Source: Isosphaera sp. (GTDB taxonomy: Bacteria; Planctomycetota; Planctomycetia; Gemmatales; Gemmataceae). Taken from it: 64,000 bases of DNA. Below the pieces are notes generated by a model, which was given only the letters and a program-made list of their open reading frames with translations, made no database searches and was not told the origin of the DNA. Position numbers and translations under genes: made by a program. Shown one piece after another: positions 11,034 through 56,502 of this stretch (within the stretch, counting starts at the first letter, position 1; every line of letters starts with the position of its first letter). Location of the stretch: contig PNKH01000032.1 in NCBI GenBank assembly GCA_013822345.1, positions 643-64,642 of the forward strand. Reading direction: 5' to 3'.

Positions 11034-11240
11034 CCCGTTCCCCGCGGTCGCGTCCCACTGCCCACGGGGCGTGACGTGTTCCGTCGTGACATTGTCGGCC
11101 GTTCCGGCCTGACCCCCGTCGCGCACGTTCCCCACGATCCACCTCCGACGCGGCCCGCCGCTGGACGGGGTGGGACAGATTCCGGTTTCAACCCAGCGGG
11201 TCCGGGTGCGTTCGTCCGGCCCGCACAACAGGAGACTCAC

Positions 11241-11834
11241 ATGGTCCGCAATCTCCTCGTTCTCGGCAGCCTCGGGGTCGCCCTCGTGGCGTTTACCCTC
11301 GTCGGGTGCAACAAGACGCAGCCCACGTCCGCCCCACCTCCCGGCGGCGAGCCGAAGCCCGGCGACCCGAAGAAGGACGGCCACGGCGACCACAAGCCGG
11401 GTGACGGCAAGAAGGACGACCACGGGGATCACAAGGCCGGTGACGGCAAGAAGGACGACCACGGCCACGCCCACAAGCCCGGCGCGCACGGCGGGACCAT
11501 CGTCTCGCTGGGCAAGGACAGCTACCACGCCGAGGCCGTGTTCGAGAAGGACGGGGCGATCCGACTGTACATGCTCGGCAAGGACGAGTCCAAGCCCCAG
11601 GAGATCGAGGTCCAGGAACTCGTCGCCCACGTGACCCCGGCCGGTTCGACGGACGCGGTGCAAGTGAAACTCACCGCCGATCCGCCGAAGGGGACCACCG
11701 CTGGGAAGACGACGGTGTTCGTGGGCAAGCTGCCGCACGAACTCCACGGGAAGAAGGTTCAGGTGACCATCAACAACATCCAGATCGGCACGGAGCGCTT
11801 CCGGATCACGTTCGCCAACGAGAAGGCGCACTAG
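11241..11834 (+). CDS. GxHGG-type His-rich lipoprotein
   Basis: AGGAGA RBS; LVG-C lipobox; His/Asp/Lys repeats; GAHGG...YHAEAVFE. Confidence 0.8.
   Translation: MVRNLLVLGSLGVALVAFTLVGCNKTQPTSAPPPGGEPKPGDPKKDGHGDHKPGDGKKDDHGDHKAGDGKKDDHGHAHKPGAHGGTIVSLGKDSYHAEAVFEKDGAIRLYMLGKDESKPQEIEVQELVAHVTPAGSTDAVQVKLTADPPKGTTAGKTTVFVGKLPHELHGKKVQVTINNIQIGTERFRITFANEKAH
11355..11483 (+). repeat. About 3 copies of a 39-bp in-frame repeat encoding KKD(G/D)HGDHK(P/A)GDG
   Basis: Units start at 11370, 11409 and 11448 (aagaaggacg...). Confidence 0.85.
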
Positions 11835-11950
11835 AGACCGCGATGCCGGCCGGGGTCGGCGGCGGTGAGAGGACCATTCCGTTTCAAGTGTCTACCATGC
11901 CGGCGGTCCCGGGTGCGATTGCCCGCGACGCGCCAGCACAGGAGGATTCC

Positions 11951-12793
11951 ATGCTGCGTAAGGCTGTTCTGTTCGGCGGCCTCGCTATCGCCGCCGCGAC
12001 CGTCGTGATCGTCGGGTGCGACAACAACCAGCCGCCGAGTGAGAAGGCTGCCGAGCCCAAAGCGCCGCCCGTGAAGCCGGACGAGGAGCACGGGCACAAG
12101 CCCGGTTCGCACGGCGGGATCATCGTCTCGCTCGGCAAGGACAGCTACCACGCCGAGGCGGTGTTTGAGAAAGGCCGGAAGGTCCGCCTCTACATGCTCG
12201 GCAAGGAGGAGACCCGGATCCAGGAGGTAGACGCCCAGGACTTGGCCGCGTTCGTCACGCCCGAGGGATCGACCGAGGCGGTCCCGGTCACGTTCAAGCC
12301 CGAGCCGCAGGCGGGCGACGCGAAGGGCAAGACCTCCCTGTTCGTGGCCACCCTGCCCGAGGAAATGTCCGGCAAAAAGGTGCAGGTGACCGTCAACAAC
12401 ATCCAGGTCGGGATCGAGCGGTTCCGGATCGCGTTCTCGAACGAGAAGGCGGCGCACGACGGCGACGGAATGCCCTCGAAGGTGGCCGACGAAGACGAGA
12501 AGAAGCTCTACCTGACGCCCGGCGGTATGTACACCGATGCCGACATCAAGGCCAATGGCGGCGTGGTCGCGTCGGTGAAGTTCAAGGGGCTGAAGGCCGA
12601 ACACGACCTGAAGCCCAAGACCGGCGTGAAGATCTGCCCGGTCACCCTCACTAAGGCCAGCCCGAAGTTTTCCTGGGTGATCGGCGGCAAGACCTACGAG
12701 TTCTGCTGCCCGCCGTGCGTGGACGAGTTCGTCGCGCTCGCCAAGGAGAATCCGGACAAGGTTCTCGACCCGTCGGCTTACATCAAGAAGTGA
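11951..12793 (+). CDS. GxHGG-type lipoprotein paralog with C-terminal YHS/TRASH-like domain
   Basis: IVG-C lipobox; GSHGGIIVSLGKDSYHAEAVFE nearly identical to the preceding gene; ICPVT...EFCCPPC. Confidence 0.8.
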   Translation: MLRKAVLFGGLAIAAATVVIVGCDNNQPPSEKAAEPKAPPVKPDEEHGHKPGSHGGIIVSLGKDSYHAEAVFEKGRKVRLYMLGKEETRIQEVDAQDLAAFVTPEGSTEAVPVTFKPEPQAGDAKGKTSLFVATLPEEMSGKKVQVTVNNIQVGIERFRIAFSNEKAAHDGDGMPSKVADEDEKKLYLTPGGMYTDADIKANGGVVASVKFKGLKAEHDLKPKTGVKICPVTLTKASPKFSWVIGGKTYEFCCPPCVDEFVALAKENPDKVLDPSAYIKK

Positions 12794-14277: not shown

Positions 14278-16638
14278 ATGACACCCGTTCGACGCCCTCG
14301 GGTCTTCACCCGCAGCCGTCGGCTGTCGCTCGTCGCGCTGGTCACCGTCGGGGTCGCGGCCCTGCTCGCGCACGAGGGGCACGCCCCCCTCCCGACCAAG
14401 GGGGCGCAGGTAGACGCCGTTGCGGGCACCCTCCTCCTCACGGCGGACGCCCGCTCCGGTATCGACGTGGAGACGGCGGCCGTCGAGGTGCGGCCGGTCG
14501 AGGAGCGGGTGCTCGCCTACGCCTCGGTCGCGGCCCCGTGGCGCAACCACGCCTTCGCCACCGCGAAGGTGGCGGGGAGGATCGTCCGCGTGTCCGTTAC
14601 GCCGGGCCAGGTCGTCAAGGCGGGGGACACGATCGCCGAGGTCGAGAGCATGGAACTCGACACCCTCCAACTCGACGTCCTCGCCGCCCGCAACGACATC
14701 GCCCTGTCCGAGAAACTGGTTGCCGCGCTGACGAAGTCCGCCGACCAGGGGACCGTGTCGGGGCAAGCGGTGATCGACGCCGAGGGCACCCTGGCCCGGC
14801 ACCGCAACGCCCTGGATCTGGCCCGGAGCAAGTGGCTTGGCCTCGGCTTGCCCGCAGCCCAGTTCGACGAACTGCTCCGCCGCGGCGAGCCGCTCCCCGG
14901 CCTCGCCCTGCCCGTTACCGCCCCCGTGTCCGGCACCGTCGTCCACGCCGAACTGACGACCGGGAAGGTGGTCGAACCGACCGAACACCTGGCCGAGGTG
15001 ATCGACCTCTCGACCGTCTGGGTCCGGGTCGAGGTTCTGGAGAAGGACCTGCGCCGGGTGGTCGTCGGCCAGCCGGTCGAGCTGCACTTGGTCGCGTACC
15101 CGGGCGAGGTATTCCGCACGACGGTGAAGGCGAAGAGCCAGTTCCTCGACCCGGCGACGAACGTGACCACCGCGTGGGCCGAACTGAGTAACCCGAGCGG
15201 CCCCGAACCACGGTTCCGCCCGGGCATGTCCGGGCAGGCGTATCTCGTCGCGGTCGAGGAGGTGCCCGTACCGCCCGCGCTCGCGGCGGTCACCGGCGGG
15301 ATGGGCGTGGCAGTCCCGCCGGTGACCCCCGGCAGACTCCGCCCGACGATCCCGGCCGACGCCGTCCTTCGTGAGGGGGTCGAGCGGTTCGTCCTGGTCG
15401 AGGATGCGAAGACGGCCGGGTCGTCCGAGTACCGCCGGGTGCCGGTCGTGGTCGGGCGCGAGGGCGGCGGGCGTGTCGAGATCCTCGCGGGCGACGTCTT
15501 CCCCGGCGACCGGGTGGTCACCCGCGGCGGGCACGAACTCGGCCCGTTCTTCACGCCCGGGGTGCTGAAACTCAGTCCCGAGGCCGAGCGGAACGTCGGG
15601 CTCAGGGGCGCGAGGGACACGTCCGGACGGGACGCTGCCCTCAAGGTCGAACCCGCCCGGATCGTCGCGATCGACGAGATCCTCGCCCTGGACGGCGCGG
15701 TCGATGTCCCGCCCGCCCGCCGCGGGTTCGCCGCGTCCCAACTGCCCGGCACCGTGCAGGCGATCCGGGTGGACCGCGGGCAGGCCGTGGCCGCGGGCGA
15801 GGTACTGGCGGAGGTGTTCAGCCCGGACCTCTTGACCATGCAGCAGGAGTTACTCCGGGTCCACCTGGAGGCCGCGCTCGCCGCCGACACGCTCGGCCGC
15901 TGGCGGAAGACCGGGGGCGGGGTCGCGGCCCAGCGGGTGTGGGAACTGGAGAGCCAGTTGAACGGCCTGAAGACCCAGTCGGACACCCTCCGGCGGAAGC
16001 TCGTGACCGCGGGACTGACACCGGCCCGGGTCGAGCAGGTTCTCGCCGACAAGCGGCCCGTCGGCGTCGCGCCGGTCCGCGCCCCGTTCGCCGGGGTGGT
16101 GGTGGACTTCGACAAGGTGCTGGGCCAGGCCGTGGCCGCGCACGAGTCGCTGTTCGAGGTCCGCGACGCGGCGGCCCGCGCGCCGGTCCGGGGGTTCGTG
16201 GCCGAACGGGACGTCGGCCGGATCAGGCCCGACCAGGAGGTTCGCGTCCGGCTCGTGGCCGACCCGGCCTTCGTGGGCACCGGCCGGGTGGCGCGGAGCG
16301 GGCGGACCTTCGGGGCGGAGAACCGCACCCAGTCCGTCTGGGTGGAACTCGACGGCGACCCGGAACGATCGCTCTTACACGGCCAACTCGCCAGGCTGAC
16401 GGTCGTCCTCGGCCGCCGGCCGGCGGCGCTTGCGGTTCCACGGTCGGCGGTGGCCGCCGAGGGCACTGCGTCGTTCGTGTTCGTGCGGAAGCCGGACGGG
16501 GTGTTCGACCGCCGTTCCGTCGAGACGGGTCCGGCGGACGACCGCTTCGTGACGGTCACCCGCGGCCTGACCGAGGGCGAGCCGGTCGCGGTGGCCGGGG
16601 TGAACGAGTTGATGACCGGGTTCGCCTCGCTCAGGTAA
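14278..16638 (+). CDS. RND periplasmic adaptor (CzcB/CusB-like) with two tandem MFP modules
   Basis: Two sets of lipoyl/hairpin motifs (GRIVRV..VTPGQVVKAGD...VTAPVSG and GTVQAIRVDRGQAVAAGE...VRAPFAG); 786 aa. Confidence 0.85.
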   Translation: MTPVRRPRVFTRSRRLSLVALVTVGVAALLAHEGHAPLPTKGAQVDAVAGTLLLTADARSGIDVETAAVEVRPVEERVLAYASVAAPWRNHAFATAKVAGRIVRVSVTPGQVVKAGDTIAEVESMELDTLQLDVLAARNDIALSEKLVAALTKSADQGTVSGQAVIDAEGTLARHRNALDLARSKWLGLGLPAAQFDELLRRGEPLPGLALPVTAPVSGTVVHAELTTGKVVEPTEHLAEVIDLSTVWVRVEVLEKDLRRVVVGQPVELHLVAYPGEVFRTTVKAKSQFLDPATNVTTAWAELSNPSGPEPRFRPGMSGQAYLVAVEEVPVPPALAAVTGGMGVAVPPVTPGRLRPTIPADAVLREGVERFVLVEDAKTAGSSEYRRVPVVVGREGGGRVEILAGDVFPGDRVVTRGGHELGPFFTPGVLKLSPEAERNVGLRGARDTSGRDAALKVEPARIVAIDEILALDGAVDVPPARRGFAASQLPGTVQAIRVDRGQAVAAGEVLAEVFSPDLLTMQQELLRVHLEAALAADTLGRWRKTGGGVAAQRVWELESQLNGLKTQSDTLRRKLVTAGLTPARVEQVLADKRPVGVAPVRAPFAGVVVDFDKVLGQAVAAHESLFEVRDAAARAPVRGFVAERDVGRIRPDQEVRVRLVADPAFVGTGRVARSGRTFGAENRTQSVWVELDGDPERSLLHGQLARLTVVLGRRPAALAVPRSAVAAEGTASFVFVRKPDGVFDRRSVETGPADDRFVTVTRGLTEGEPVAVAGVNELMTGFASLR

Positions 16639-16651
16639 TGGGGGTCCGACC

Positions 16652-19600
16652 GTGCTGAACCGCGTGATCGCGTTCTCGCTCCAGAACCGGGTGTTGGTGC
16701 TGATCGCCGCCCTCGTGGTCGCCGCCGCCGGCCTCTACCAACTCGTCCGCACGCCGGTAGACGTATTCCCGGACTTGAACCGCCCGACCGTCACCATCCT
16801 CACCGAGGCACCGGGCCTTGCACCCGAAGAGGTCGAGGCGCTCGTCAGCCGGCCGATCGAGTACCAGGTGAACGGGGCGACCGGGGTGAAGCGGGTCCGG
16901 TCCGCGTCGGGCATCGGGCTGTCGGTGGTGTGGGTCGAGTTCGACTGGGGCACGGACATCTACCGGGACCGGCAGATCGTCGCCGAGCGGCTCCAACTCG
17001 TGCGGGAGCGGCTGCCCCAGGACGTGAACCCGGTGATGGCCCCGATCTCGTCCATCATGGGCGAGGTCATGATCCTGGGCCTGCGCCCGGCCGAGTCGCC
17101 GAAGACCCCGGAGGAGGCCCTCCAGAAGGGAATGGACCTGCGGACGTTCGGCGAGTTCACCGTCCGGAACCGGCTCCTGGCGATCGACGGCGTGTCGCAG
17201 GTCACGGTGATGGGCGGCTACCTGAAGCAGTACCAGGTGGTGACCTCACCCGAGCGGCTGGCGGCCCAGAAGGTCACCCTCCAGCAGCTCACCGACGCCG
17301 CCGAGAAGTCCTACGTACTGGCCGGCGGCGGGGTGATGGAGCGGGGCACGCGCGAATCGCTCATCCGGATCAGCGCGCAGAGCCTGACGCCGCAACAAAT
17401 CGAGGAAACCCCGGTCGTCTGGCGGGGCGACCGGGCGGTCCGGATCAAGGATGTGGCCGACGTCCGGTTCGCCGGCCCGGTCCGCCGCGGGGACGGAAGC
17501 ACCCTGGTCCGGGAGGGCGACCGCGTCGCCGGCGGCCCGTCGGTCATCCTGGCAGTCCAGAAGCAGCCGGGGGCGAACACCCTGGACCTCACCCCCAAGC
17601 TGGACGCCGCCCTGGCCCAACTCCAGGCCGACGCCCCACCCGGCGTGGTCGTGGAGCGCCGCGTGTTCCGACAGGCCGACTTCATCGAGACGGCCATCGA
17701 CAACGTGATCGAAGCGATCCGCGACGGGACGGTCTGGGTGTTCGTCGTCCTGCTGCTGTTCCTGGCCAGCATACGGACGAGTGTCATTACCCTGACCGCC
17801 ATTCCGCTCTCGATCCTGACCACCGTGCTGGTGTTCAGCTACTTCGGGATCACCATCAACACGATGACCCTCGGCGGCATCGCGGTCGCGGTCGGCGAAC
17901 TGGTGGACGACGCCATCGTGGACGTGGAGAACATTTTCCGCCGGCTGCGCGAGAACCGGCTGAAGGCCAACCCCGACCCGGCGCTCAAGGTGATCTTCAA
18001 GGCGTCGAGCGAGGTGCGCAACTCGATCGTCTACGCCACCCTGATCGTCTGCCTCGTCGTGTTGCCGCTCTTCGCCCTGTCCGGACTCGAAGGCCGGATG
18101 TTCGCCCCGCTCGGCCTCGCGTACCTGGTCGCGCTCCTCGCGTCGCTGGCCGTGTCCCTGACCGTCACGCCGGTCCTGGCGTCGCTCCTGCTGGGGCGGG
18201 CGGGGGCCACGGCCCACCCCCGAGACCCGCTCCTGCTCCGCGGCCTCAAGTGGGTGGACACCCGAGTCCTCCGGTACACCCTCCGGCACCCGCGGCCGAT
18301 CCTGGTCGCATCGCTCCTGCTGTCGGCGGTCACCATGCTCGCGGTGTTCGGGATGGGGTCCGAGTTCCTCCCCCCGTTCAACGAGGGGACGGTCACGGTC
18401 AACCTCCAACTCCCGCCGGGCACGAGCCTTGCCGAGAGCGGAAGGGTCGCGGCGCGGGCCGAGCAATCCCTGTTGCAGATCCCCGAGGTGGTGTCGGTGT
18501 CCCGGCGGACCGGGCGGGCCGAGCAGGACGAGCACGCCGAGGGGGTGAACACGTCCGAAATCGAGGTGCGGTTGACCCCGCACGAGCGGCCGAAGCCGGG
18601 GGTGGGGTACGCCCTCCTGCGGGCTGTCCCCGGCCTCCACGGGTACGGGGTCGAGAAGTCCGGCCGGCCGCACGACCAGGTGCTGGCCGACATCCGCGAC
18701 CGGGTGAGCAGCATCCCGAACGTGAAGGCGAACGTGGGGCAACCGATCAGCCACCGGCTCGACCACGTCATGTCCGGGGTGCGCGCCCAGGTCGCGGTCA
18801 AGGTGTTCGGTTCGGACCTCCAGGAACTGCGGAACGCGGCCCAGGAGATCCAGGACGCGATGGCGAAGGTCCCCGGCGTGGTGGACTTGCAGGTCGAGCC
18901 GCAGGTGGAAATCTCGCAGGTCCGGCTCCGGGTGAAGGTGGATGAGGCGGCTCGGTACGGCCTCGCCCCCGGCGACGTGTCGAGGCTGCTCGAAACCGCC
19001 TACAAGGGCCGGGTCGTGGCGACCGTGCTGGACGCGGAGAAGTACTTCAGCCTGGTGGTGTGGTACGACGAGGCGTCGCGGAACTCGCCCGCGGTGATCG
19101 GCCAGACCATCCTCGACACCCCGTCCGGCAAACGGGTGTCGCTCGACCAGGTGGCCGAGGTGCTGGACACGACCGGGCCGAACACCCTGAATCACGAGAA
19201 CGTGGCCCGGCGGGTAGTGGTGTCGTGCAACGTCCAGGGCCGGAGCCTCGGGGACGTGGTCGCCGACATCAAGCGGGCCGTCCGCCCGGTCGAAGAGAAG
19301 CTCCGGGCCAAGGGCGGGGAGTACCGGATCGAGGACGACGGCCAGTACCGCGCGCAGCAGGAGGCGAACAGCCGGCTCCTGGTGTTCGGTACGGCCGCCG
19401 TGGTCGGGGTGTTCCTGCTGCTGTGCCAGTGCCTGGGGTCGTGGCGGGCGGCGCTGATGGTCCTCGGCGTGAACATCCCGCTCGCCGGCCTGGGAGCAGT
19501 GGCGGCAATGCTGATCATTAACCGACCCGACCCTGCGGCCTTGCACGCCGCCCCGTGGTGGAAGTGGCCGGCGGTGTGGGCGCAGGCGACGACGCTCTCG

Positions 19601-20176
19601 GTCGCCCACTGGGTCGGGTTCATCACGCTCATCGGGATCGTCAGCCGCAACGGGATCATGATGATCGCCCACTACATCCACCTGATGCGGGAAGAGGGTG
19701 AGCCGTTCGGGAAGGACATGATCGTCCGCGGGAGCCTGGAGCGGCTGGCCCCGGTGCTGATGACTGCCAGCGTCGCGGTGATCGGACTGGTGCCGCTGGC
19801 ACTCGGGGCCGGGCAGACGGGCAAGGAGATCCTCCACCCGCTGGCCGTGGTGGTGATCGGCGGGCTGGTCACCTCGACCCTGATGGACCAGGTCGTGACC
19901 CCGGCCGTGTTCCTCCTCTTCGGCCGGAAGGTGTACACCCCGGAGGCACCGGCCTCCGACGGCAGGCGTGCCGTCGGTTGGGACGATGCGTGGCTGGCCG
20001 AACGCCCGGAACCGTTACCGCGGTCCGGGATCGTCCCGCCGCCACCGCCGATCGCCCACGAACCGCCCGCGCCGGGAGCCAAGGGACACCCGGAGGCGAA
20101 CGGGCCGGGTGGTCCGCCGGCCTCCGAACCGGCGGCGATACCGGCATCACAGTCCGCGCCGGCCCCCGAGGGATAG
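16652..20176 (+). CDS. CusA/CzcA-family heavy-metal efflux RND permease
   Basis: PVDVFPDLNRP, SASGIGLSVVWVEFDW, GELVDDAIVDVEN, ERLAPVLMTA, PLAVVVIGGLVTST. Confidence 0.92.
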   Translation: MLNRVIAFSLQNRVLVLIAALVVAAAGLYQLVRTPVDVFPDLNRPTVTILTEAPGLAPEEVEALVSRPIEYQVNGATGVKRVRSASGIGLSVVWVEFDWGTDIYRDRQIVAERLQLVRERLPQDVNPVMAPISSIMGEVMILGLRPAESPKTPEEALQKGMDLRTFGEFTVRNRLLAIDGVSQVTVMGGYLKQYQVVTSPERLAAQKVTLQQLTDAAEKSYVLAGGGVMERGTRESLIRISAQSLTPQQIEETPVVWRGDRAVRIKDVADVRFAGPVRRGDGSTLVREGDRVAGGPSVILAVQKQPGANTLDLTPKLDAALAQLQADAPPGVVVERRVFRQADFIETAIDNVIEAIRDGTVWVFVVLLLFLASIRTSVITLTAIPLSILTTVLVFSYFGITINTMTLGGIAVAVGELVDDAIVDVENIFRRLRENRLKANPDPALKVIFKASSEVRNSIVYATLIVCLVVLPLFALSGLEGRMFAPLGLAYLVALLASLAVSLTVTPVLASLLLGRAGATAHPRDPLLLRGLKWVDTRVLRYTLRHPRPILVASLLLSAVTMLAVFGMGSEFLPPFNEGTVTVNLQLPPGTSLAESGRVAARAEQSLLQIPEVVSVSRRTGRAEQDEHAEGVNTSEIEVRLTPHERPKPGVGYALLRAVPGLHGYGVEKSGRPHDQVLADIRDRVSSIPNVKANVGQPISHRLDHVMSGVRAQVAVKVFGSDLQELRNAAQEIQDAMAKVPGVVDLQVEPQVEISQVRLRVKVDEAARYGLAPGDVSRLLETAYKGRVVATVLDAEKYFSLVVWYDEASRNSPAVIGQTILDTPSGKRVSLDQVAEVLDTTGPNTLNHENVARRVVVSCNVQGRSLGDVVADIKRAVRPVEEKLRAKGGEYRIEDDGQYRAQQEANSRLLVFGTAAVVGVFLLLCQCLGSWRAALMVLGVNIPLAGLGAVAAMLIINRPDPAALHAAPWWKWPAVWAQATTLSVAHWVGFITLIGIVSRNGIMMIAHYIHLMREEGEPFGKDMIVRGSLERLAPVLMTASVAVIGLVPLALGAGQTGKEILHPLAVVVIGGLVTSTLMDQVVTPAVFLLFGRKVYTPEAPASDGRRAVGWDDAWLAERPEPLPRSGIVPPPPPIAHEPPAPGAKGHPEANGPGGPPASEPAAIPASQSAPAPEG

Positions 20177-20286: not shown

Positions 20287-20622
20287 ATGATGCGATTCGT
20301 GTACGCCCTGGCGGCCGCTGCGGCGCTGGGCACCGCCTGGACCGCGACCGCCGACGACAAGAAGGAAACCAAGCTGACCGGCACACTCGTGTGCGGGAAG
20401 TGCAGCCTCAAGGCGACGCCGAAGTGCAGCAACGTCCTCCAGGTGAAGGAGGGCGACAAGCTCGTCAACTACTTCCTCGACGACAAGGGGAACGGCGAGC
20501 CGTACCACGAGGGCGTCTGCGGCGGTGACAAGGTCGAGAATGTGGCCGTCACCGGCACCGTCACCGAGAAGGACGGCAAGAAGACGGTCAAGCCGACCAA
20601 GGTCGAGTTGCCCAAGAAGTGA
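20287..20622 (+). CDS. Small exported Cys-motif protein (DUF6370-like)
   Basis: Signal peptide; LVCGKCSLK..KC.NVLQV...H..VCG...VTGTVTEKDGKK. Confidence 0.7.
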   Translation: MMRFVYALAAAAALGTAWTATADDKKETKLTGTLVCGKCSLKATPKCSNVLQVKEGDKLVNYFLDDKGNGEPYHEGVCGGDKVENVAVTGTVTEKDGKKTVKPTKVELPKK

Positions 20623-20754
20623 CGTGGAGTCGGGGCCCGGTGTCGAACCCTTCGGGCGGCACCCGGCCCCGGCGGTCACCAGTGGCCCAACGAGGGTCCG
20701 GCGGGAAGCCCCGACCGCGGCCGGGGCCGGCACCCTCAGCGACACGAGGAACTG

Positions 20755-22140
20755 ATGCAGCCCCAAATCACGATCTCGTCGGCCCAGTTTACGGGCTCAC
20801 AAACACTTGAGACGGGCTGGCAATACCATCGGGCAGGGCAGCACGCCCAGGCCGAACAGGTCTGCCGCCAGTTGCTGCAGGCCAACCCCGAGGACGCGCA
20901 GGCCTTGCGACTCCTCGGCCTGACCTGCCAGGCACAGAACAAGCTCGCGGACGCCGAGGCTCATTACCGCCGGGCGTTGTCCCTCCAGCCCGACGACGCC
21001 GAGATTCACAACGACCTGGGGGTGGCCCTGGGCAGGCGAGGCGACCTCGTCCAGGCCGTGCCCTCGTTCGAGCAAGCGGTCCGGCTCATGCCGAACCACG
21101 TGATCGCCCACAACAACCTGGCACAAGTCTTCCTCCAGCTCGGCCAGCCGAACAGAGCAGCCTTCCACTCATCTGAGGTCGTGCGTCTCCAGCCCGGCAG
21201 TGCCGACGCCCACAACCAGATGGGGGTGATCCTCGCCCAGCAAGGTCAATTCGACCCGGCCATGAACTCGTTCGAGCAGGCCCTCCGGATCAAGCCGGAC
21301 CACCCGGTCGCCGGCATGAATCTGGACAAGGTCCGATTTCTACAGCAGACCCAATTGCAGAACGCGACGAACCAGTTACTGGGAGCCATCTATTACAACC
21401 AGTTCCTGTCGATGGATCGCTACGCGGACCCGAAGAGGCTGTTGAAGTACGGCTACAAGGTCTACTCGCAGGGGTACGGGGACGGAATGATCCAGGAGAT
21501 TTTCTCCAGGGTCGGCATAACGAACAAGAGGTTCATCGAGTTCGGGGTGGAGACGCAAGAAAACAACACGTTGTTTTTGCTGCTGTCCGGCTGGTCAGGA
21601 CTCTGGCTCGACGCCCGGGCGTTGGACCTCGGGCCTGTAGCAAACCACATCAAGAACGGGACGCTCAAGTTCGCGCAGGTTGTCGTCACCGCCGAGAACA
21701 TCAACGGTGCGATCCGCGAGCACTACGGGGTGGGGGAAATCGACCTGTTGAGCATCGACATCAGCGGTAACGATTATTGGGTGTGGAAGGCACTCGACGC
21801 CGTTCGCCCCCGCGTGGTGGTGGTCGAGTACAACTCGTCCTTCTCCCCCCTCGGCAGCATGACCGTCAAGTACATGGCCGACGACCAGGTCAAGCTGGCG
21901 GCGCGCCTCAACGACTTCGGCGCCAGTCTGAAGGCGTACGAGAAACTGGGGGTGGAGAAAGGCTACCGGCTGGTCGGGTGCGATCTGCGAGGGGTGGATG
22001 CGTTCTTCGTCCGCGAGGACCTGGTCGGCGATCGCTTCTGCGAACCATTCACCTCGGAAAACCATTACGAGCCGCCACGATTCTTTCCACCACGATTACC
22101 TCACAACATGTTCGCACAAGGGGAATTCAAAGAAATCTAA
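20755..22140 (+). CDS. TPR-repeat protein fused to FkbM-like methyltransferase-fold domain
   Basis: About 5-6 TPRs (e.g. AEIHNDLGVAL, ADAHNQMGVIL), then YSQ..DG.IQEIF, FIEFG, SIDISGNDYW, VVVEYN, GASL, DAFFVR; visibly more A/T-ending codons than its neighbours. Confidence 0.75.
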   Translation: MQPQITISSAQFTGSQTLETGWQYHRAGQHAQAEQVCRQLLQANPEDAQALRLLGLTCQAQNKLADAEAHYRRALSLQPDDAEIHNDLGVALGRRGDLVQAVPSFEQAVRLMPNHVIAHNNLAQVFLQLGQPNRAAFHSSEVVRLQPGSADAHNQMGVILAQQGQFDPAMNSFEQALRIKPDHPVAGMNLDKVRFLQQTQLQNATNQLLGAIYYNQFLSMDRYADPKRLLKYGYKVYSQGYGDGMIQEIFSRVGITNKRFIEFGVETQENNTLFLLLSGWSGLWLDARALDLGPVANHIKNGTLKFAQVVVTAENINGAIREHYGVGEIDLLSIDISGNDYWVWKALDAVRPRVVVVEYNSSFSPLGSMTVKYMADDQVKLAARLNDFGASLKAYEKLGVEKGYRLVGCDLRGVDAFFVREDLVGDRFCEPFTSENHYEPPRFFPPRLPHNMFAQGEFKEI

Positions 22141-22200
22141 AGTGTGAAGAAAGCACGGCGGCGGTAGCCGCAACGCGACAGGGGGCCGGCGCACAGGCCG

Positions 22201-22314
22201 CCGCCCGGGTTCCTGGCGACGCACTACGGCATCGGCACGCCGCTCGCGGTGCTGGTCGCCCACGTGGCGTTCGGCACCATCCTCGGAGCCTTCTGTGACA
22301 TCGACCTTCGCTGA
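22201..22314 (+). repeat. Orphan copy of the last 114 bp of the membrane-protein gene (26707-26820)
   Basis: Encodes PPGFLATHYGIGTPLAVLVAHVAFGTILGAFCDIDLR*; 22247-22314 is identical to 26753-26820 (68 bp). Confidence 0.92.
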
Positions 22315-22357
22315 TCGTCAGCATGCCTCGACATTCTTCACGTGCCGAGGGCTGCGG

Positions 22358-22428
22358 CCGGCAGCGTCACCGAGAAGGACGGCAAGAAGACGGTCAAGCC
22401 GACCAAAGTCGAGCTACCCAAGAAATGA
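22358..22428 (+). repeat. Orphan copy of the last 71 bp of the DUF6370-like gene (20552-20622)
   Basis: 66 of 71 nt match, including the stop codon; differences are mostly synonymous. Confidence 0.92.
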
Positions 22429-22676
22429 TCGAGCGGAGTTACCCGAACGGGGCCGGACCGAATGCCGCCGCGGCGCTATTCGCGGACGGGCACCCAGCCG
22501 CCCGTCCGGGGCAGCTACCGCGGGGCGATGACACTCCACCACGGCGGAAGGCGGTAGTGTTCCGCCGCGAAGTATGGCCAGCCGAGCGGCGGTGGCTCCC
22601 CCGGGCCCCTCGAACCTGAATCCGGGCCGTGGGCCACTCGACTCGGATGTTGTTTCCCCCTCTCCGGAGATTGACG

Positions 22677-23114
22677 ATGCGACACCTCGTTCCCCCAAGC
22701 CTGTGCCTCGTGGCCGTGGTCGTCGTCGCGGGGGCCCTCACGACGGGTTCCACCACACCAAGCCCGGCCGCCCAGCCGCAGAACGATCCCGTGAAGACGC
22801 TCCAGAAGGAGCGTCTGACGGCCCTCCAGAAGATTCACGACGAGTCGCTCCGGGCCTACAAGGGCGGTCAACTGCCTCTCGACCAGGTGCTGTCCGCCCA
22901 CCTCGCGCTGCTCAACGGCAAACTCGACCTGTGCGAGACGAACGCCGAGCGGGTTAAGATTCACGAGGAGATGGTCCGGGTGGCCGAGGAGTTCTTGAAG
23001 AGCGTCCGGAAGCTGGCGGAAGCCAAGCAGGTCAGCAGCCTCGACGTGCTCAAGGCCGAGGTCCAACTTCTGGACGCCCGGATCGGGCTGGAAAAGGCCA
23101 AGGCCGCCAAGTGA
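22677..23114 (+). CDS. Small secreted all-helical protein resembling one TolC/OEP helical repeat
   Basis: GGAGA RBS; signal peptide; VSSLDVLKAEVQLLDARIGLEK. Confidence 0.65.
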   Translation: MRHLVPPSLCLVAVVVVAGALTTGSTTPSPAAQPQNDPVKTLQKERLTALQKIHDESLRAYKGGQLPLDQVLSAHLALLNGKLDLCETNAERVKIHEEMVRVAEEFLKSVRKLAEAKQVSSLDVLKAEVQLLDARIGLEKAKAAK

Positions 23115-23338
23115 CGGGGTATTGCCAGGACGGGTGCCAACACCGGCACGCACAGGGCATCCACAGGATCGGCTGCATCGGCAGAGGGCTTGTCGTCACG
23201 ACGGACGAGTAGAACAGCAATCGCTTGATGTACAGCCGGGCCGTAAGGCTGTGGACACCGACCCGCATCGTTGCCCTTCGGCTCGCCAAATCTCATAACC
23301 GAGTGAAGTGATATCCCAACAGGCGACAGGCCAATGCG

Positions 23339-25192
23339 ATGACAGGAGCGACGCCGAAAATCCAGGACTATGCCGTCATCGGTGACGGGCGGGCGGGCGC
23401 GCTGGTGTCCCGGGACGGCTCCATCGACTGGCTGTGCTGGCCCCGGTTCGATAGCCCGTCGCTGTTCGGGGCGCTCTTGGACCGGCGGGTCGGAGGTGCC
23501 TGGAGCGTCACGCCCGCCCTGCCGGCCGAAGTCGAACGCCGCTACATCGACGAAACGAACGTGCTACAGACCCGGTTCCGCACGGCCACGGGGGCGATGA
23601 CCCTCACCGACTTCATGGTGGCATTCTCCGAGGAGGACAAGCGGCGGCGGCTCATGCCGGAGCACGAGTTGGTGAGGCGGGTGGAGTGCGAGCACGGGGA
23701 AGTGGAAATCCTCGCCCACTTCGACCCGCGCCCCGACTACGGCCGGGCCGAGTTCCGCATCCGCGACGCCGGGGCGCTCGGCCTCCGTATTGACATGGGG
23801 TCGTGGCTGGTCGCGCTCCACGGCGGCGTGAAGTTCGCCCCGGCCGCGGAAGGCGGGGCGTCGGCGCGCGTCACGCTGAGAGCCGGGGAGTCTACCACCT
23901 TCTCACTCACGTACTCGGCCGAGGGGCCGGCCGTGGTCCCGCACCTCGGCGAGGGCGCCGCGGAGAAGCTCGCGCTCACCGTCGGGTGGTGGCAGCGCTG
24001 GGCGGCCCGTGCCCGTTACGACGGCCCGTACCGCGACGCCGTCGTCCGCAGCGCGCTCGTACTCAAGCTGCTGTCCTATGCCCCGTCGGGGGCCATCGTC
24101 GCGGCACCGACCACGTCCCTGCCAGAGCGGCTCGGCGGCGACCTGAACTGGGACTACCGCTTCTGCTGGCTGCGCGACGCCGCGTTCACGGCCCGCGCCC
24201 TCTTCGGCCTCGGCTACGAGGAGGAAGCCGAAGCGTTTTGCAGTTGGATGCTGCACGCGACGCGGCTCACCCGCCCGGAGCTGCGGGTCCTCTACGACGT
24301 GTTCGGCGAAACCCTCCCGAAGGAGACGGACCTGCCACACCTCGAAGGGTACGCCGGGTCGCGCCCGGTCCGCGTCGGGAACGCGACGCGGGACCAGCTC
24401 CAGCTCGACGTGTACGGCGAGGTCGTCGAGGCGTGTACATACTTCGCCGGGCGCGGCGGCGCGCTCGACCGCGACACGCAGCAGATGCTCCGCCACTTCG
24501 GCGAGTACGTCTGCCGCCACTGGCAGGAGCCGGACAACGGCATCTGGGAGCCGCGCGGGGTGCGGCAGCACTTCACCCACTCGCGGCTCCTGTGCTGGGT
24601 GGCCCTGGACCGCCTCCTCGCACTGCACCGGGCGGGTCGCATCCGCGGCATCCCGGCAGACCGGTTCGCGGCAAATCGGGAGCGCATCCGGCGCGACATC
24701 GAGGAGCGGGGCTGGAACCCGACGCTGGAAAGTTACACCGCGGTCCTGGGCGGGGAGACCCTCGACACGACCGTCCTCCAGATGGCGTTCCTGGGGTTTG
24801 CCGAGGCGTCTTCGGAGCGGATGCGGCAGACCTGCCGGAGGCTCCGGGAGCGCCTGGGCGCGGGGCCGGGGCTGATCTACCGCTACGAGCAGAGTTTCGA
24901 GGGCCGCGAGGGCGCGTTCGCCATGTGCTGTTTCTGGGTCGCCGATTTCCTCGCCCGGGGCGGCGGCAGCCTGGGCGAGGCGCACGACTCCTTCGCCCGG
25001 ACGCTCGCGTACGCCAACGACCTGGGGCTGTTCGCCGAGGAGATCGACCCGCGGACCGGGGACGCGCTGGGCAACTTCCCGCAGGCGTTCACCCACGTCG
25101 GCCTCATCAACGCCGCCCTCTCGCTGGCGGAACGGGAGGAGCGGGACCGCCGCCAGGAAGGAGCCGCTGCCCGCGGCCGTCCCTTTCGGTAA
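23339..25192 (+). CDS. Glycoside hydrolase family 15 (trehalase/glucoamylase-like)
   Basis: IQDYAVIGD, SIDWLCWPRFDS, AAPTTSLPE..GG..NWDYRFCWLRDA, QLDVYGE, GNFPQAFTHVGLI. Confidence 0.9.
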   Translation: MTGATPKIQDYAVIGDGRAGALVSRDGSIDWLCWPRFDSPSLFGALLDRRVGGAWSVTPALPAEVERRYIDETNVLQTRFRTATGAMTLTDFMVAFSEEDKRRRLMPEHELVRRVECEHGEVEILAHFDPRPDYGRAEFRIRDAGALGLRIDMGSWLVALHGGVKFAPAAEGGASARVTLRAGESTTFSLTYSAEGPAVVPHLGEGAAEKLALTVGWWQRWAARARYDGPYRDAVVRSALVLKLLSYAPSGAIVAAPTTSLPERLGGDLNWDYRFCWLRDAAFTARALFGLGYEEEAEAFCSWMLHATRLTRPELRVLYDVFGETLPKETDLPHLEGYAGSRPVRVGNATRDQLQLDVYGEVVEACTYFAGRGGALDRDTQQMLRHFGEYVCRHWQEPDNGIWEPRGVRQHFTHSRLLCWVALDRLLALHRAGRIRGIPADRFAANRERIRRDIEERGWNPTLESYTAVLGGETLDTTVLQMAFLGFAEASSERMRQTCRRLRERLGAGPGLIYRYEQSFEGREGAFAMCCFWVADFLARGGGSLGEAHDSFARTLAYANDLGLFAEEIDPRTGDALGNFPQAFTHVGLINAALSLAEREERDRRQEGAAARGRPFR

Positions 25193-26308
25193 CATCACAA
25201 CAGACGTACAAGTTTGGCGGGCTCAGAACAAAGGGAGGACGCTGTGAAGTGGAGATTATTTCTGTTGCTCGGGACCGCTTTGCTCCCGACTGCCGCGATA
25301 GGGGCGGAGGAAGGGAAGCAGCCCGTGAAGTGTGTGGGACACGAGGCGATCGTCACCGCAGTCGCCCTCTCCCCCGATGGCAAGGTGGCCGTTTCCAACA
25401 GCGACGATCGCACGCTGCGCTTTTGGAACACGGCCGACGGCAAAGAGATCCGGAAGGTGGAAGCCGGTTTCTGGATCGGCGGCGTCCGCTTCTCGCCCGA
25501 TGGCAAGTACTTGGCCACCACGGCGACGGATTCGGTGCGCTTCTGGGATCCCGCGACTGGCAAAGAAGTCGGAAAAGACATCAAGGAACACTTGACCGTA
25601 AAGGAGCCCGGGTACGGTCTGGCGTTCTCGGCGGACGGCTCCAAACTGGTCGTTGCCTGCGGTACTGGGGCGGAGGTCTGGGACGCGAGGCTCGGCCGGA
25701 AGCTGCGGGATTTCCGGCCGAAGGACAAAGGCTTCGGCAATGCCCGGCAGGTGGCAATTTCGCCGGACGGCTCGCTCGTGGCCGCCGCCTTGCTCGGCGA
25801 GGGCGGCAGAGATACGGAGGAGGGGTTTCCCGCGGTGCGCGTTTGGGAGGCGAAAAGCGGGGAGGAAATGTTCAAAACGTGGGCTGGAACAAGCGCAGAC
25901 GCCGTCGCGTTCTCGCCCAGCGGGAAGCAACTGGCGATTGGCGGGATGCTTCCTGACGGGGCAGACCACAACGGGGTGCTCGAAATCTGGGATCTCGACC
26001 CGAACGGGAGCAGGCTCCTTTCGCGGGTACGGGCCGACAAGCACGGCCTGTTCTGCCTGGCCTTCAGCCCGGACGGCAAGACCATCGCCACGGGCGGGAC
26101 CGAGCCGGCGGTCAAGCTGTGGAACGCAACCACCGGCGAGTTGATCGGGAAGCTGGAAGGGCACTCCGACCAAGTTCACGCCCTCGCCTTCTCCGCAGAC
26201 GGGAGGAGCCTCGCTTCGGCGGGAAGGGATAAGCTCGTCTTGATCTGGCCGATGGGAGGTGGCCGGAGGTAAACCGCCTCACGCCAAGAAGCAGCCGCAG
26301 CCCGCGGC
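25151..26308 (+). repeat. 27-bp imperfect direct repeat (25151-25177 and 26282-26308) bracketing the WD40 gene
   Basis: cgccaggaaggagccgctgcccgcggc vs cgccaagaagcagccgcagcccgcggc (24/27). Confidence 0.8.
25244..26272 (+). CDS. Secreted WD40-repeat protein
   Basis: GGAGG RBS and GTG start; signal peptide; repeated GH...V..VA.SPDG...LRFWN/VKLWN units. Confidence 0.88.
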   Translation: MKWRLFLLLGTALLPTAAIGAEEGKQPVKCVGHEAIVTAVALSPDGKVAVSNSDDRTLRFWNTADGKEIRKVEAGFWIGGVRFSPDGKYLATTATDSVRFWDPATGKEVGKDIKEHLTVKEPGYGLAFSADGSKLVVACGTGAEVWDARLGRKLRDFRPKDKGFGNARQVAISPDGSLVAAALLGEGGRDTEEGFPAVRVWEAKSGEEMFKTWAGTSADAVAFSPSGKQLAIGGMLPDGADHNGVLEIWDLDPNGSRLLSRVRADKHGLFCLAFSPDGKTIATGGTEPAVKLWNATTGELIGKLEGHSDQVHALAFSADGRSLASAGRDKLVLIWPMGGGRR

Positions 26309-26337
26309 GACCGTGAACAGGCTCCGGAGGCGCGTCG

Positions 26338-26820
26338 ATGAACTTCGGTAGCTGGCTGCTGTGGGGCTTCGTGGGCACGGTCGTGCTGAGCGTCATCGTC
26401 GCCGCGAGCCAGGGGTTGGGCCTGACGCGGATGAACATGCCGTACCTGCTCGGCACCGTCTTCACGCCGGACCGGGACCGGGCGAAGCTGATCGGCGTCG
26501 CGTGCCACTTCGCCAGCGGCTGGCTTTTCGCCCTCGTCTACTTCGCCGCCTTCCACGCCCTGGGCACGGCGACGTGGTGGCTCGGGGCACTGGCGGGGCT
26601 GGTCCACGGCTCCTTCGTCCTGACGGTCGGCATGCCCCTGCTGCCCGCCCTGCACCCCCGCATGGCCAACGAGCAGTACGGGCCGACCGTGGTCCGGCAG
26701 TTGGAGCCGCCGGGGTTCCTGGGGTTGCATTACGGCATCGGTACGCCGGTTTCGGTGCTGGTCGCCCACGTGGCGTTCGGCACCATCCTCGGAGCCTTCT
26801 GTGACATCGACCTTCGCTGA
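26338..26820 (+). CDS. Conserved membrane protein
   Basis: Four hydrophobic segments; GLTRMNMPYLLGT, HPRMA, PPGFLG. Confidence 0.75.
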   Translation: MNFGSWLLWGFVGTVVLSVIVAASQGLGLTRMNMPYLLGTVFTPDRDRAKLIGVACHFASGWLFALVYFAAFHALGTATWWLGALAGLVHGSFVLTVGMPLLPALHPRMANEQYGPTVVRQLEPPGFLGLHYGIGTPVSVLVAHVAFGTILGAFCDIDLR

Positions 26821-26862
26821 CAGTCGGCACGCCCGACCTCATGCACGGCCCGAGGGCTGGGG

Positions 26863-26895
26863 CCGGCACCGGCCCGAGGAGGACGGCAGGAAGAC
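26863..26895 (+). repeat. Degenerate further copy of the DUF6370-like 3' segment
   Basis: ccggcaccggcccgaggaggacggcaggaagac vs ccggcaccgtcaccgagaaggacggcaagaagac; preceded by the same spacer as the 22358 copy. Confidence 0.7.
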
Positions 26896-26956
26896 CGCCG
26901 GAGGAGAGTGCGCCGGCATCGATTCGGCACCACGAATTCGTGAAGAGGGGATTGAG

Positions 26957-27427
26957 ATGGCCGGGTGTTGCGGGTCGAACGAGCGGTCGCGGGCGAGGAA
27001 GTTGCTCGGGCCGGTGGTCTGGCTGCTGATCGGGGTCTTCGTGGTCGGACTCGCAATCTGGGAGCGGCAGCCGCACCACCACGCTGACGTCGGGCCGCAC
27101 GGCGGCCCGCTGGCCGACTGGGACGACGGGGCGATCCACTTGGAGATCGACATCGGCCGGGACGAGGAGACGGCGACCATCTACGCCCTCGACCGGTGGG
27201 CCAAGAGGCCGAAGCCGATCGACGCCAAGCCGCTCACCCTCACCCTGAAGACCGACCCGGAGAGGGTGGTGATTTTCGACCCGGACCCAGACGCGGGCGA
27301 CCCGCCCGGCCGGTCCAGCCGGTTCACCGCGCGTCACCACGTCTTCTGGCCGCAGGCCAAGGTGCGCGGGACCGTATCCGGGACGGCCGAGGGCAAGCCG
27401 TACTCCGGCGACGTTAGCGAAAAGTAG
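26957..27427 (+). CDS. GxHGG-type membrane-anchored protein
   Basis: N-terminal GCCG and TM; HHHADVGPHGG...HLEI...DAGDPPGRSSRF. Confidence 0.7.
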   Translation: MAGCCGSNERSRARKLLGPVVWLLIGVFVVGLAIWERQPHHHADVGPHGGPLADWDDGAIHLEIDIGRDEETATIYALDRWAKRPKPIDAKPLTLTLKTDPERVVIFDPDPDAGDPPGRSSRFTARHHVFWPQAKVRGTVSGTAEGKPYSGDVSEK

Positions 27428-35588: not shown

Positions 35589-36655
35589 CGTCCGTCCTCC
35601 GTCGGTGGGAAAAGGGAGCGGCCCGGTCCACAGTGGACCGGGCCGCCGAAGGGTCGGGCGGCGAACTGGTGTAATCAAAACCGTGTCGCACCACGCCCCT
35701 CGACGGCCGGCCGCGGGCGGCGGGCGGTCGAGGGGCGGTCAGTGAGCTTCGTCTACCCGGGCGGGTCGGCTGGGGCCGGTCCCTCAGAAGTGGTGAACGG
35801 GATTTCAGCACGACCCAGGCGGCTAGTCAAACGCCGTGTCCGCGGCCGCCTGTAAACGCCCGAACGTCCGGCACCGTCGGGAGTTCCGGGCAACGGGCCG
35901 GCCGCCCGTTCACAGAGTGTAAACGCGGGGAACTGCCTGTCCCGATTGGAGTTGTCGCCGAACCCTGCCGCCCGCCGTCGGCAGCACACCCGGGTGCATC
36001 GGGTGTGGTCCTCAAAATGTGCTTTCCCGGCGGCCGTCACAAGAATTGTGATTTGCGAAGGGGGCGTGCCACTGACCGGGCGGTGGGGGCCGGTGCCGAT
36101 GGCGGTTTAGTGGCTGAAGCGGCCGATCCGTACGGTGTCGATAGCGGATTCTGTGGAGTGACGCCGACGGGTCAAGCTCGGGTGAGCAGTGGCCAGACGG
36201 TGGGTAGGACCTGCGCGATCAGGCTTCTCCGCCTGCCCGTCTGTCGCGCGACGATGTTGCCGGCTGCTGCCGGTACCTCCAGTTATCGTCATCGTGTTCG
36301 CTCGGCGGTTTGCGGCTCTCGGACACGGCGGGTAAGCTGCCGTAGCGAGCAGGCTGCCCGCCGCCGGCAAGCACCGACCGGGGGCGCGGGGCAGAAATGC
36401 GACTGCCGGGCGGGGACGCCAGCAGGTGCTGGGCGTTGTGCCGACGGTCGAGACTATCGGCCCCAGCGGGCGGGCGCTGTTGGTGCCGCCGGCGGGCGGT
36501 GAGGTTCGCGCGGGTGGGACAGATGATCGGTTGTCGGGCCACGGCCGCGACGTTTCCGCTTGGCGAAATCTGGTCGCTCTGGCCGGCCTGGGATGGCGGG
36601 TGACCGCCGGCCGTGAGCGACTGGGCGCGGCGAACCGCGCCCCGCTGAAGCCGGA

Positions 36656-42466: not shown

Positions 42467-42763
42467 ATGTCCACCCGTTCCAAACCGGTCGGCTTCCGCC
42501 TGTCCACCCCCGCCGCCAAGCGGCTTGCGGCCGCGGCCGCCCGGCACGGGCTGTCCCCGGGCACCTATGCCCGCCGGCTGGTGCTGGCGGGCCTGGACGA
42601 CGACGCCGGCCGGCAGGCGCTGGACGAACTGGCCGCCGTCCGGGAGCAGTTGGCCCGGCTTCGGGCCGACCTGGTCCGGGTCGCCGTGGCCCTCTTGACC
42701 GACGCCGGCAAGGCCGAACTGGACGATGCCGAGGCGTGGGCCCGCGATCACCTTCGGGGATGA
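42467..42763 (+). CDS. MobC-like relaxosome accessory protein
   Basis: KPVGFRL...KRLAAAAARHGLSPGTYARRLV RHH pattern followed by a coiled coil; directly upstream of the relaxase. Confidence 0.65.
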   Translation: MSTRSKPVGFRLSTPAAKRLAAAAARHGLSPGTYARRLVLAGLDDDAGRQALDELAAVREQLARLRADLVRVAVALLTDAGKAELDDAEAWARDHLRG

Positions 42764-42787
42764 CCTGTCATGTTGTGGGTGTTCGTC

Positions 42788-47277: not shown

Positions 47278-47375
47278 TCGACCCCGCCCGTTAGACCGGG
47301 CAAGTGGTCCGGCCGACGAATGCCCACAGTTCGGCGACTGGCGGCCCCGGTCGTGACCTTCGACGAGGACCGACG

Positions 47376-48161
47376 ATGTCGAGAAAAACCAGCCTCCCGC
47401 CCGTAGCGCGACGGCTGACGGCGACCTGTGAGACGATGACCTTCGTCCTCGGGGGGGTGCGGGTGACGGTGACCGCCAGCCGCCGCTCGGATCCCGCCGT
47501 CATCGTTCGGTCGTTTCGAGCGATCACCGAATTCGTGGACCCCGACCAGCCGCGGTTCGGGAACGGCCGTGACGTCCGTTTCGACAGCCTTCCTCATTCC
47601 GGGCTGACGATCCAGCGGCGCGAGGGTCCATACCTGAGCGGCCGTGACATCCTTCGCGCCCTGAACGCGGCCGCCGACCGGGTGGAAACCGAGAGGTTTC
47701 CCGAACCGCCGCGTCCGCGGACGTTCCCACCCGCCGTGCAAACCGACCCCATCCGGTTCGGCGCGGAAACGTTGCACTGGCGGGAGTTCGAGCAGCGGGT
47801 GGTGGCGCAAAGTGACGTGTCCCTCGCTTGGGACGACGCGCTGGCCGACGGCTTCAACCGCTACTTCTGCGACCGGGTGGCGGGGTGCCCGCCCAAGCCG
47901 ATTGTCTTCGACTTCCGCCCGGGCACCCGGTCGCTCCTCGGCGTCCACTGCCGCGACCGCATCCGGCTGCGGGCCGACATCCCCGACGACGAAAAGTGGC
48001 GGACGCTGTTCCACGAACTCGCCCACTACCGCGTGCGGCATCACCGCCGCACCTTCGTCCGCGAACTCGCACTCGTGTACCGCACCTGGATCGCCTTCCG
48101 ATCCGCCCCCGAGGCCGAGTCCTCCCCGAAGCACCCGACCGACAACCCCACACCACGGTGA
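47376..48161 (+). CDS. HExxH zinc-metallopeptidase-like protein (YgjP/SprT-like C-terminus)
   Basis: TLFHELAHYRVRHHRRTF. Confidence 0.55.
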   Translation: MSRKTSLPPVARRLTATCETMTFVLGGVRVTVTASRRSDPAVIVRSFRAITEFVDPDQPRFGNGRDVRFDSLPHSGLTIQRREGPYLSGRDILRALNAAADRVETERFPEPPRPRTFPPAVQTDPIRFGAETLHWREFEQRVVAQSDVSLAWDDALADGFNRYFCDRVAGCPPKPIVFDFRPGTRSLLGVHCRDRIRLRADIPDDEKWRTLFHELAHYRVRHHRRTFVRELALVYRTWIAFRSAPEAESSPKHPTDNPTPR

Positions 48162-48164
48162 CCG

Positions 48165-50173: not shown

Positions 50174-50238
50174 GGGAGCTTCCGTGCTTTTGCGGCGAAC
50201 GACCATGACGGCACCTCGACCCGTGGGAAGTTTATGGT

Positions 50239-50275
50239 ATTATATGCAAAGTGGCCAGCCGTTCGACATCGCGAC
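50239..50275. other. Putative att junction of the island
   Basis: AT-rich element sequence switches at about 50259 into ccgttcgacatcgcgacgtgc (PFDIATC of YgiQ). Confidence 0.65.

Positions 50276-55068: not shown

Positions 55069-56502
<1,434 letters not shown>

Follow-up and report, generated by a model that had tools for sequence, protein, structure and literature searches.

Recurring tails of a DUF6370 gene behind a metal-efflux operon of a Gemmataceae bacterium: probable scars of ordinary recombination in a mobilizable island

In a 64,000-nucleotide (nt) stretch of Isosphaera sp. DNA (GenBank assembly GCA_013822345.1, contig PNKH01000032.1, positions 643 to 64,642; hereafter, the window), the last gene of a heavy-metal efflux operon, which encodes a DUF6370 protein, is followed downstream by further copies of its own 3′ end. 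A preliminary description, made from the sequence alone, ascribed these copies to successive integrations at one fixed site in the gene, each of which left a replaced tail and which together gave an integron-like tandem array with neither attC sites nor an adjacent integrase. If true, the integron-like reading would add a new route by which bacteria collect genes behind a resistance operon. The locus raises the question of whether such a system left the copies or whether they arose by more familiar processes. We consider it probable that they are rearrangement scars from ordinary recombination in the cargo of a mobilizable metal-resistance island (Gemmataceae, Frigoriglobus-like), with no working system behind them.

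The recurrence itself was found as described. The downstream segment at 22358–22428 (orphan tail A) is identical to the reference tail of the gene (20552–20622) at 66 of 71 positions, ungapped and with the stop codon included, and the segment at 26863–26895 (tail B) differs from the first 34 nt of the tail by 3 mismatches and 1 gap. A search for a 22-nt tail core, with at most 3 mismatches tolerated, gave 3 hits in the window and none in 100 shuffles. Tail B, previously called a decayed copy, does match the beginning of the tail but is truncated, not merely decayed. A weak fourth copy had also been proposed at about 20727–20746 (20718–20746); this match is at chance level, with equal matches at 38178 and 54480, and it overlaps a tandem GGCCGG at which a sister strain has a 6-nt deletion.

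Both orphan tails are parts of a longer composite repeat. Positions 22200–22391 align with positions 26706–26895 over 192 columns (E 8e-54), and we designate the 2 copies DR1 (containing junction A) and DR2 (containing junction B). In the repeat, the final 117 nt of a DUF6789-family gene are followed by a spacer of approximately 42 nt and then by the tail. The region 22200–26895 corresponds to 1.04 copies of a 4506-nt unit, that is to say, the repeat brackets a 4.5-kb block, with tail A internal to the unit and tail B closing the right-hand repeat. Because the orphan tails are homologous through the approximately 160 nt of shared flank upstream of them, they represent one junction rather than independent hits on a fixed base. 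Such an extended shared flank is expected of a homologous-recombination scar. The common start base reported for the copies is thus real, but the orphan copies owe it to one ancestral junction within the composite repeat; similarly, the related g(g/c)ggc sequence in front of them is shared but is merely the end of this flank.

The divergence between the 2 repeats is mosaic. The first approximately 50 nt are 78% identical, with repeat A carrying the states of the L207/L029 type and repeat B those of the L203 type (L numbers denote loci and contigs of the comparison described below); the following 68 nt show no difference (68/68); the spacers are 74% identical; and the tails match at 31 of 34 positions. 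A tract of perfect identity inside diverged repeats is expected of exchange or conversion, and the 68-nt tract is of this kind. The mosaic fits exchange or gene conversion between 2 units, related but distinct, by way of the conserved DUF6789 end. A possible continuation of the tail homology into the spacer in front of it, through a CGAGGGC match with an indel, was rejected as not significant (p 0.05–0.4).

The sequence from 22429 onward is unrelated to the hairpin that follows the resident gene (p 0.24); therefore, tail A is not a local duplicate of the gene plus its surroundings, and it appears to be derived from another DUF6370 copy. The changes that separate the gene from tail A are K/K, L/L, K/K, and T/S, exactly as first listed, and 4 of the 5 are synonymous. 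The coding selection once read from them is weakly supported: the excess of synonymous changes has a p of about 0.012 with equal substitutions and of about 0.13 with a GC-to-AT bias, because 55% of the GC-to-AT transitions in the Lys-rich tail are synonymous. Three of the tail A changes replace G by A, and the resulting AAA or CTA codons are rare at 92% GC in third codon positions. The tail A changes thus look more like neutral decay than coding constraint.

Nothing indicates that the resident DUF6370 gene has exchanged its tail. It closes the HlyD/CusB–RND heavy-metal efflux operon, and the order HlyD–RND–DUF6370 is the same in L212, L214, L004, L006, and L009. The RND protein is 91% identical to that of L212 and 87–88% identical to those of L004, L006, and L009; the DUF6370 protein is 88–92% identical to its orthologs in L212/L214/L215 and 87–89% identical over the aligned residues to those in L004/L006/L009, all of which are likewise placed after an RND gene. 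Ortholog identity is flat across position 20552 (5′ part versus tail, e.g., 88/86%, 86/90%, and 92/92%). The 51 nt past the stop codon are 71–80% identical to L212, L214, L028, L004, L006, and L009, and 57% identical to L215, against a background of 56–62%; the homology to L028 has a p of 0.007 in a shuffle test, and the BLAST match to L212/L213 ends at 20673. Because identity does not break at 20552 and homology extends 51 nt beyond the stop codon, the foreign DNA starts near 20674, outside the gene. An att core inside the repeat is expected to break synteny there; instead, the homology to L212, L214, L028, and L004 crosses the tail. The right edge of the accreted region is formed by gene X and its upstream region, from about 26896. 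Gene X is 64–66% identical to its counterparts in L004/L006 and about 58–71% identical to that in L009, each located downstream of DUF6370, and the similarity of tail B to the reference tail ends at 26895, about where the homology upstream of gene X in L004/L006 begins (26885–26896). The accreted region between the hairpin and gene X is thus 20674–26895, approximately 6.2 kb.

The locus was compared with 79 genome loci carrying DUF6370 relatives, 36 metagenome DUF6370 loci, and 5 further contigs (L212–L216). Orphan tails were found in none of these except those of the same species and L029; among the 79 genome loci, the orphan tail of the window otherwise occurs only in a conspecific metagenome-assembled genome (MAG). 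The L029 case is an independent orphan DUF6370 3′ fragment (L029 10001–10184, codons 52–111, 87.5% identical to the window gene), which begins where an unrelated FAD-oxidoreductase gene ends and has a GH15–DUF6789 pair 6 kb downstream. Its break at codon 52, compared with codon 89 in the window, shows that the breakpoints vary, which is expected of homologous-recombination scars. The metagenome scan used the 21-mer CGAGAAGGACGGCAAGAAGAC, which is unspecific, as it encodes EKDGKK, a peptide frequent in many proteins; it returned at least 36 DUF6370 genes, all intact, with no orphan copy among the matches listed. A plasmid collection held no relatives.

The slot between DUF6370 and gene X is variable in content: L004/L006 have a small response-regulator gene, L009 has 5 kb of EF-hand, HEAT-repeat, and methyltransferase genes, and the window has its 6.2 kb. 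No tail copies were found in the slots of L004, L006, and L009. The suspected hotspot is therefore borne out as a variable slot, but repeated fixed-site integration into it is unsupported, and the expectation of different cargo between the same tails in homologous islands fails in L009, whose cargo stands without tail copies. In L212, the closest non-conspecific ortholog (88% nucleotide identity over HlyD–RND), a methyltransferase gene (L212 9197–9907) is inserted between the RND and DUF6370 genes. Since this insertion lies upstream of DUF6370, both sides of the gene accept insertions.

No dedicated recombination machinery or site structure was found in the window. Pfam scans of about 58 open reading frames (ORFs) across it revealed no tyrosine recombinase or phage-integrase-family domain, and the sole recombinase found in the 64 kb is a large serine recombinase located 22 kb from the tail copies. 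Large serine recombinases exchange at a 2-bp core and leave no long repeats. The window contains no tRNA genes and no Rfam matches, and there is no attC-like hairpin at the 3 repeat junctions, where single-stranded DNA folds of both strands of junctions A and B gave z-scores of −0.3 to −1.0. The array was thus rightly said to have neither attC sites nor an integrase as far as the window extends, but an integron-like mechanism is unsupported. A pair of candidate terminal inverted repeats at 22185/26908 (a perfect 10-mer) was within noise; the right arm at 26908 is native sequence upstream of gene X, conserved in L006, and thus is not an element end.

The blocks gathered in the slot differ in composition and relationships (Table 1). 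The TPR–FkbM gene has a GC content of 0.57–0.62, compared with 0.70 in its neighbors; its closest homologs, 77% and 72% identical, are located in unrelated contexts, and the homology stops at the gene limits. The GH15 gene is 76–85% identical to the GH15 genes located directly before DUF6789 genes in L029 and L201–L208, where GH15 and DUF6789 form a conserved overlapping pair, also in metal-resistance contexts. The WD40 block (GC 0.60–0.66) has an imperfect 27-nt direct repeat on either side (25151–25177 and 26282–26308; 24/27), and its insertion has given the GH15 gene new final codons. The original GH15 end is still joined to the DUF6789 start through an ATGA overlap, as in all homologs. DUF6789 has 5559 homologs, with identities of 72–87% in the best 120 of the 5559. 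Since the homology to L029/L201–L208 does not extend past the DUF6789 stop codon, the spacer is peculiar to the lineage of the window. Searches of PDB and NCBIfam gave no match for DUF6370, DUF6789, or gene X, and exact-protein look-ups gave no record for the DUF6370 and DUF6789 proteins. The small OEP-like gene stands apart from its surroundings when compared with L078: the region 22464–23589 is 95.6% identical at the nucleotide level, with indels, and 86% at the amino acid level, and its neighbors are 99–100% identical.

Table 1. Features of the DUF6370 locus and of the surrounding island (window coordinates).
Feature	Position	Strand	Remarks
HlyD/CusB gene	14278-16638		First gene of the heavy-metal efflux operon
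RND (CusA-like) gene	16652-20176		Between the HlyD/CusB and DUF6370 genes
Intact DUF6370 gene	20287..20622	+	111 aa, secreted, Cys-containing; Pfam PF19897, E 1.2e-10
Reference tail of DUF6370 gene	20552..20622	+	Codons 89-111 plus stop
Native hairpin downstream of DUF6370 gene	20623..20673	+	Hairpin visible in fold; left edge of accreted region
TPR + FkbM-like methyltransferase gene	20755..22140	+	Pfam; low-GC single-gene block
DR1, left composite repeat	22200..22391	+	DUF6789 3′ fragment 22200-22316, spacer 22317-22357, first 34 nt of tail A
Orphan tail A	22358..22428	+	5′-truncated DUF6370 remnant with stop codon; 66/71 to gene
Small secreted protein	22677..23114	+	Similar to OEP/TolC helical segment; Pfam PF02321, E 4e-8
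GH15 glycoside hydrolase (trehalase/glucoamylase-like)	23339..25192	+	Pfam
WD40-repeat gene block	25178..26281	+	Inserted in GH15 3′ end
Displaced original GH15 3′ end	26282..26337	+	Homology to L203 continuous from 26282 through 26820
Intact DUF6789/YagU-like membrane protein gene	26338..26820	+	Weak Pfam matches
DR2, right composite repeat	26706..26895	+	DUF6789 3′ end, spacer 26821-26862, truncated tail B 26863-26895
Gene X	26957..27427	+	His-rich; conserved partner downstream of DUF6370 in orthologous operons
TrwC relaxase	42770-45298		
Type IV coupling protein (T4CP)	44746-47277		
Large serine recombinase	48560-50206	−	Right end of island; Pfam Resolvase + Recombinase

From these features, we infer an order of events that involves RecA-type recombination between related modules. 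The native operon would have been HlyD–RND–DUF6370–hairpin, followed by X–SpoIIE, and the approximately 6.2 kb of foreign blocks would have gathered between the hairpin and X. One block may have come from another metal-resistance module, in which a second DUF6370 copy, cut at codon 89, came to lie behind a GH15–DUF6789 pair; that event would have made the single junction of DUF6789 end, 42-nt spacer, and tail. This junction would then have been doubled by general homologous recombination into the 190-nt direct repeat around the 4.5-kb unit, either through Campbell-style insertion of a related circle or segment by way of the DUF6789 3′ end, or through unequal crossing-over followed by deletion, with the 68-nt perfect tract marking the exchange or conversion. 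The low-GC single genes, that is, TPR–FkbM and the WD40 gene in the GH15 tail, would have been inserted later, and tail B would have been trimmed to 34 nt by a deletion. For annotation, pseudogene fragments lie at 22200–22428 and 26863–26895, 26282–26337 is the displaced GH15 end, and TPR–FkbM and WD40 would be late low-GC insertions in a conserved metal-resistance backbone.

Several points weigh against this reading: (i) the 3 tail copies diverge by 7–12% and the spacer by 26%, and tails that are less diverged than the spacer require gene conversion or some past coding constraint; (ii) the DUF6789 alleles of repeats A and B differ, so that junction-bearing units must have existed in at least 2 diverged versions, and a family of mobile units would also yield 2 diverged versions of the junction; (iii) the first junction and the 27-nt duplication at the WD40 block are not accounted for mechanistically; (iv) the integrase search covers the 64-kb window alone; and (v) the population data are Logan contigs, not reads, and rare circles or deletions are outside the reach of contigs.

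Two explanations would derive the structure from the locus itself or from its assembly. The resident tail and a downstream block could have been duplicated or triplicated in tandem, purely locally, and then have decayed, with the greater part of copies 1 and 3 lost and replaced by the TPR–FkbM gene. This scenario would account for the 1.04 unit lengths of the 4506-nt period and for the fact that tail A is closest to the tail of the adjacent gene (66/71). We regard it as rather unlikely, as it needs at least 4 separate events; the sequence downstream of tail A is not homologous to the resident hairpin even though the tails differ by 7%; and DUF6789 fragment A shares the states of L207/L029 and fragment B those of L203, that is to say, A is no decayed copy of B. 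Mis-joining of paralogous DUF6370 or DUF6789 loci during assembly, which the preliminary description had listed as a possible refutation, is conceivable in that DUF6370 is multi-copy (at least 5 contigs in one MAG) and short-read graphs break at repeats. The joint between the gene and TPR–FkbM is crossed by contigs of X2, L002, and L200 (X numbers denote sequencing runs, those of X1–X16 being from drinking-water and biofilter samples), junction A by X7, X2, X12, and L078, and junction B by X1 and X16; L002 and L078 belong to MAGs. Because every junction is crossed by contigs of several independent runs and a MAG, the structure is not a chimera of one assembly; in addition, the units are evenly covered in X1, in which the array is present, and most of X2–X16 hold a variant of the array about 98–99% identical. 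A chimeric origin is thus extremely improbable. In the assembly graphs of 4 runs, the 68-nt tract forms a separate unitig common to copies A and B, the depth of which is above that of the flanking contigs in 3 of the 4. One 860-nt contig of run X9 joins 22246 to 26753 via this tract and omits 4506 nt; the depth of X9 is zero at both alternative branches, so the joint is probably a low-coverage assembly path, or otherwise a genuine homologous deletion variant, which, if real, sits in the DUF6789 tract and not at the tail. None of the Nanopore runs holds the region.

The other 2 explanations invoke a recombinase acting in trans. In site-specific tandem accretion, non-autonomous cis-mobilizable elements (CIMEs) would enter the DUF6370 3′ end serially, each from a circular form with an attP composed of the DUF6789 end and spacer on one side and the tail on the other, and each integration would restore the gene and leave the displaced tail behind. 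The process is established: remnants of integrative conjugative or mobilizable elements (ICEs and IMEs), such as the CIMEs related to ICESt1/ICESt3, accrete in tandem at the fda 3′ end in Streptococcus thermophilus, where decayed elements lie in series behind a gene (PMC5704250). The locus resembles these arrays in that blocks devoid of recombination genes are arranged in series behind a gene and are separated by direct repeats that hold its 3′ end, here the tail copies at 20552, 22358, and 26863, up to exactly the stop codon. Two units with the same right end and different DUF6789 alleles, tail copies less diverged than the spacer, and mostly synonymous changes between the gene and tail A agree with this explanation as well. 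By contrast, neither unit contains an integrase, and the window holds the large serine recombinase only; the gene is collinear with empty-site orthologs up to 51 nt past its stop codon, where synteny breaks, rather than inside the repeat; the orphan copies share one junction and its flank; the junction is absent from about 120 other DUF6370 loci and does not recur in other genomes; L009 has cargo in the same slot free of repeats; the L029 breakpoint differs; no hairpin or inverted-repeat core was found at the junction; and the sole candidate deletion joint is not at the tail. We therefore consider serial site-specific accretion quite improbable. Even less probable is a broader capture process, in which integrase-less blocks in Gemmataceae would be caught at gene 3′ ends (DUF6370 and GH15) by a putative trans-acting recombinase, with 27–71 nt of the target tail duplicated per capture; if true, it would constitute a cassette-accretion system without attC sites. 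Fixed-site integration into the DUF6370 gene with replaced tails, as first proposed, conflicts with the flat identity across 20552, with the single junction, and with the position of the WD40 block at the tail of another gene.

Comparison with known systems likewise favors recombination between related modules. In integron cassette arrays, as at the locus, unrelated and mostly promoter-less genes follow a fixed point in the same orientation; by contrast, no intI, attI, or attC hairpin was found here, the repeat consists of part of a gene, and the blocks are mosaics of several genes. Integrative mobilizable or conjugative elements with serine recombinases describe the island as a whole, which has its recombinase beside a truncated target, a TrwC relaxase, a T4CP, and ParA/ParB, but they leave the internal tail repeats unaccounted for. 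Direct-repeat segments made by homologous recombination (Campbell-type insertion, unequal crossing-over, and loop-out between paralogous resistance modules) are matched by one long imperfect repeat pair around 4.5 kb with a perfect tract inside, by remnants with variable breakpoints in relatives, and by the mosaic cargo of a mobile island, with no contradicting data. These comparisons point to the ordinary growth of mosaic resistance islands, in which general recombination between related modules leaves fragments of genes in place.

The window has a GC content of 71%, and its nearest relatives are Gemmataceae assemblies (Frigoriglobus and Gemmata). The mobile island spans the window from position 1 to approximately 50.2 kb, and its left end is located outside the window. 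In addition to the HlyD/CusB–RND–DUF6370 operon, its metal-resistance cargo includes a multicopper oxidase, HMA and YHS proteins, and an OEP. ParA, ParB, the TrwC relaxase, and the T4CP are located near the large serine recombinase, and a NikA-like protein is also present at the right end of the island (42467–50642). The large serine recombinase adjoins a 156-residue C-terminal remnant of a DUF3362 (YgiQ-type radical SAM) gene, which is probably the integration target of the island. Two tandem paralogous genes at 11076–12793 (75% identity over 357 nt) encode secreted His/Lys/Asp-rich proteins, the second of which has a C-terminal YHS/TRASH-like metal-binding motif; a repeat at 7628/11408 was dismissed as low-complexity Lys/His-rich coding sequence.

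Run X17 (2016, labeled as a single organism and possibly RNA) contains short contigs that match portions of the TPR–FkbM, GH15, WD40, and X genes (21679–27191) at 100% identity, which suggests an isolate as the source and low-level transcription of these genes. Long palindromes of 29–82 nt with 86–97% complementarity are located at 35618–35737, 54971–55052, 56406–56456, and 63388–63452. Those at 35.6–35.7 kb stand before an ORF-poor stretch (approximately 35.7–37.3 kb) between the DUF932-like and ParB genes, and this stretch could be the origin of transfer or replication of the island.

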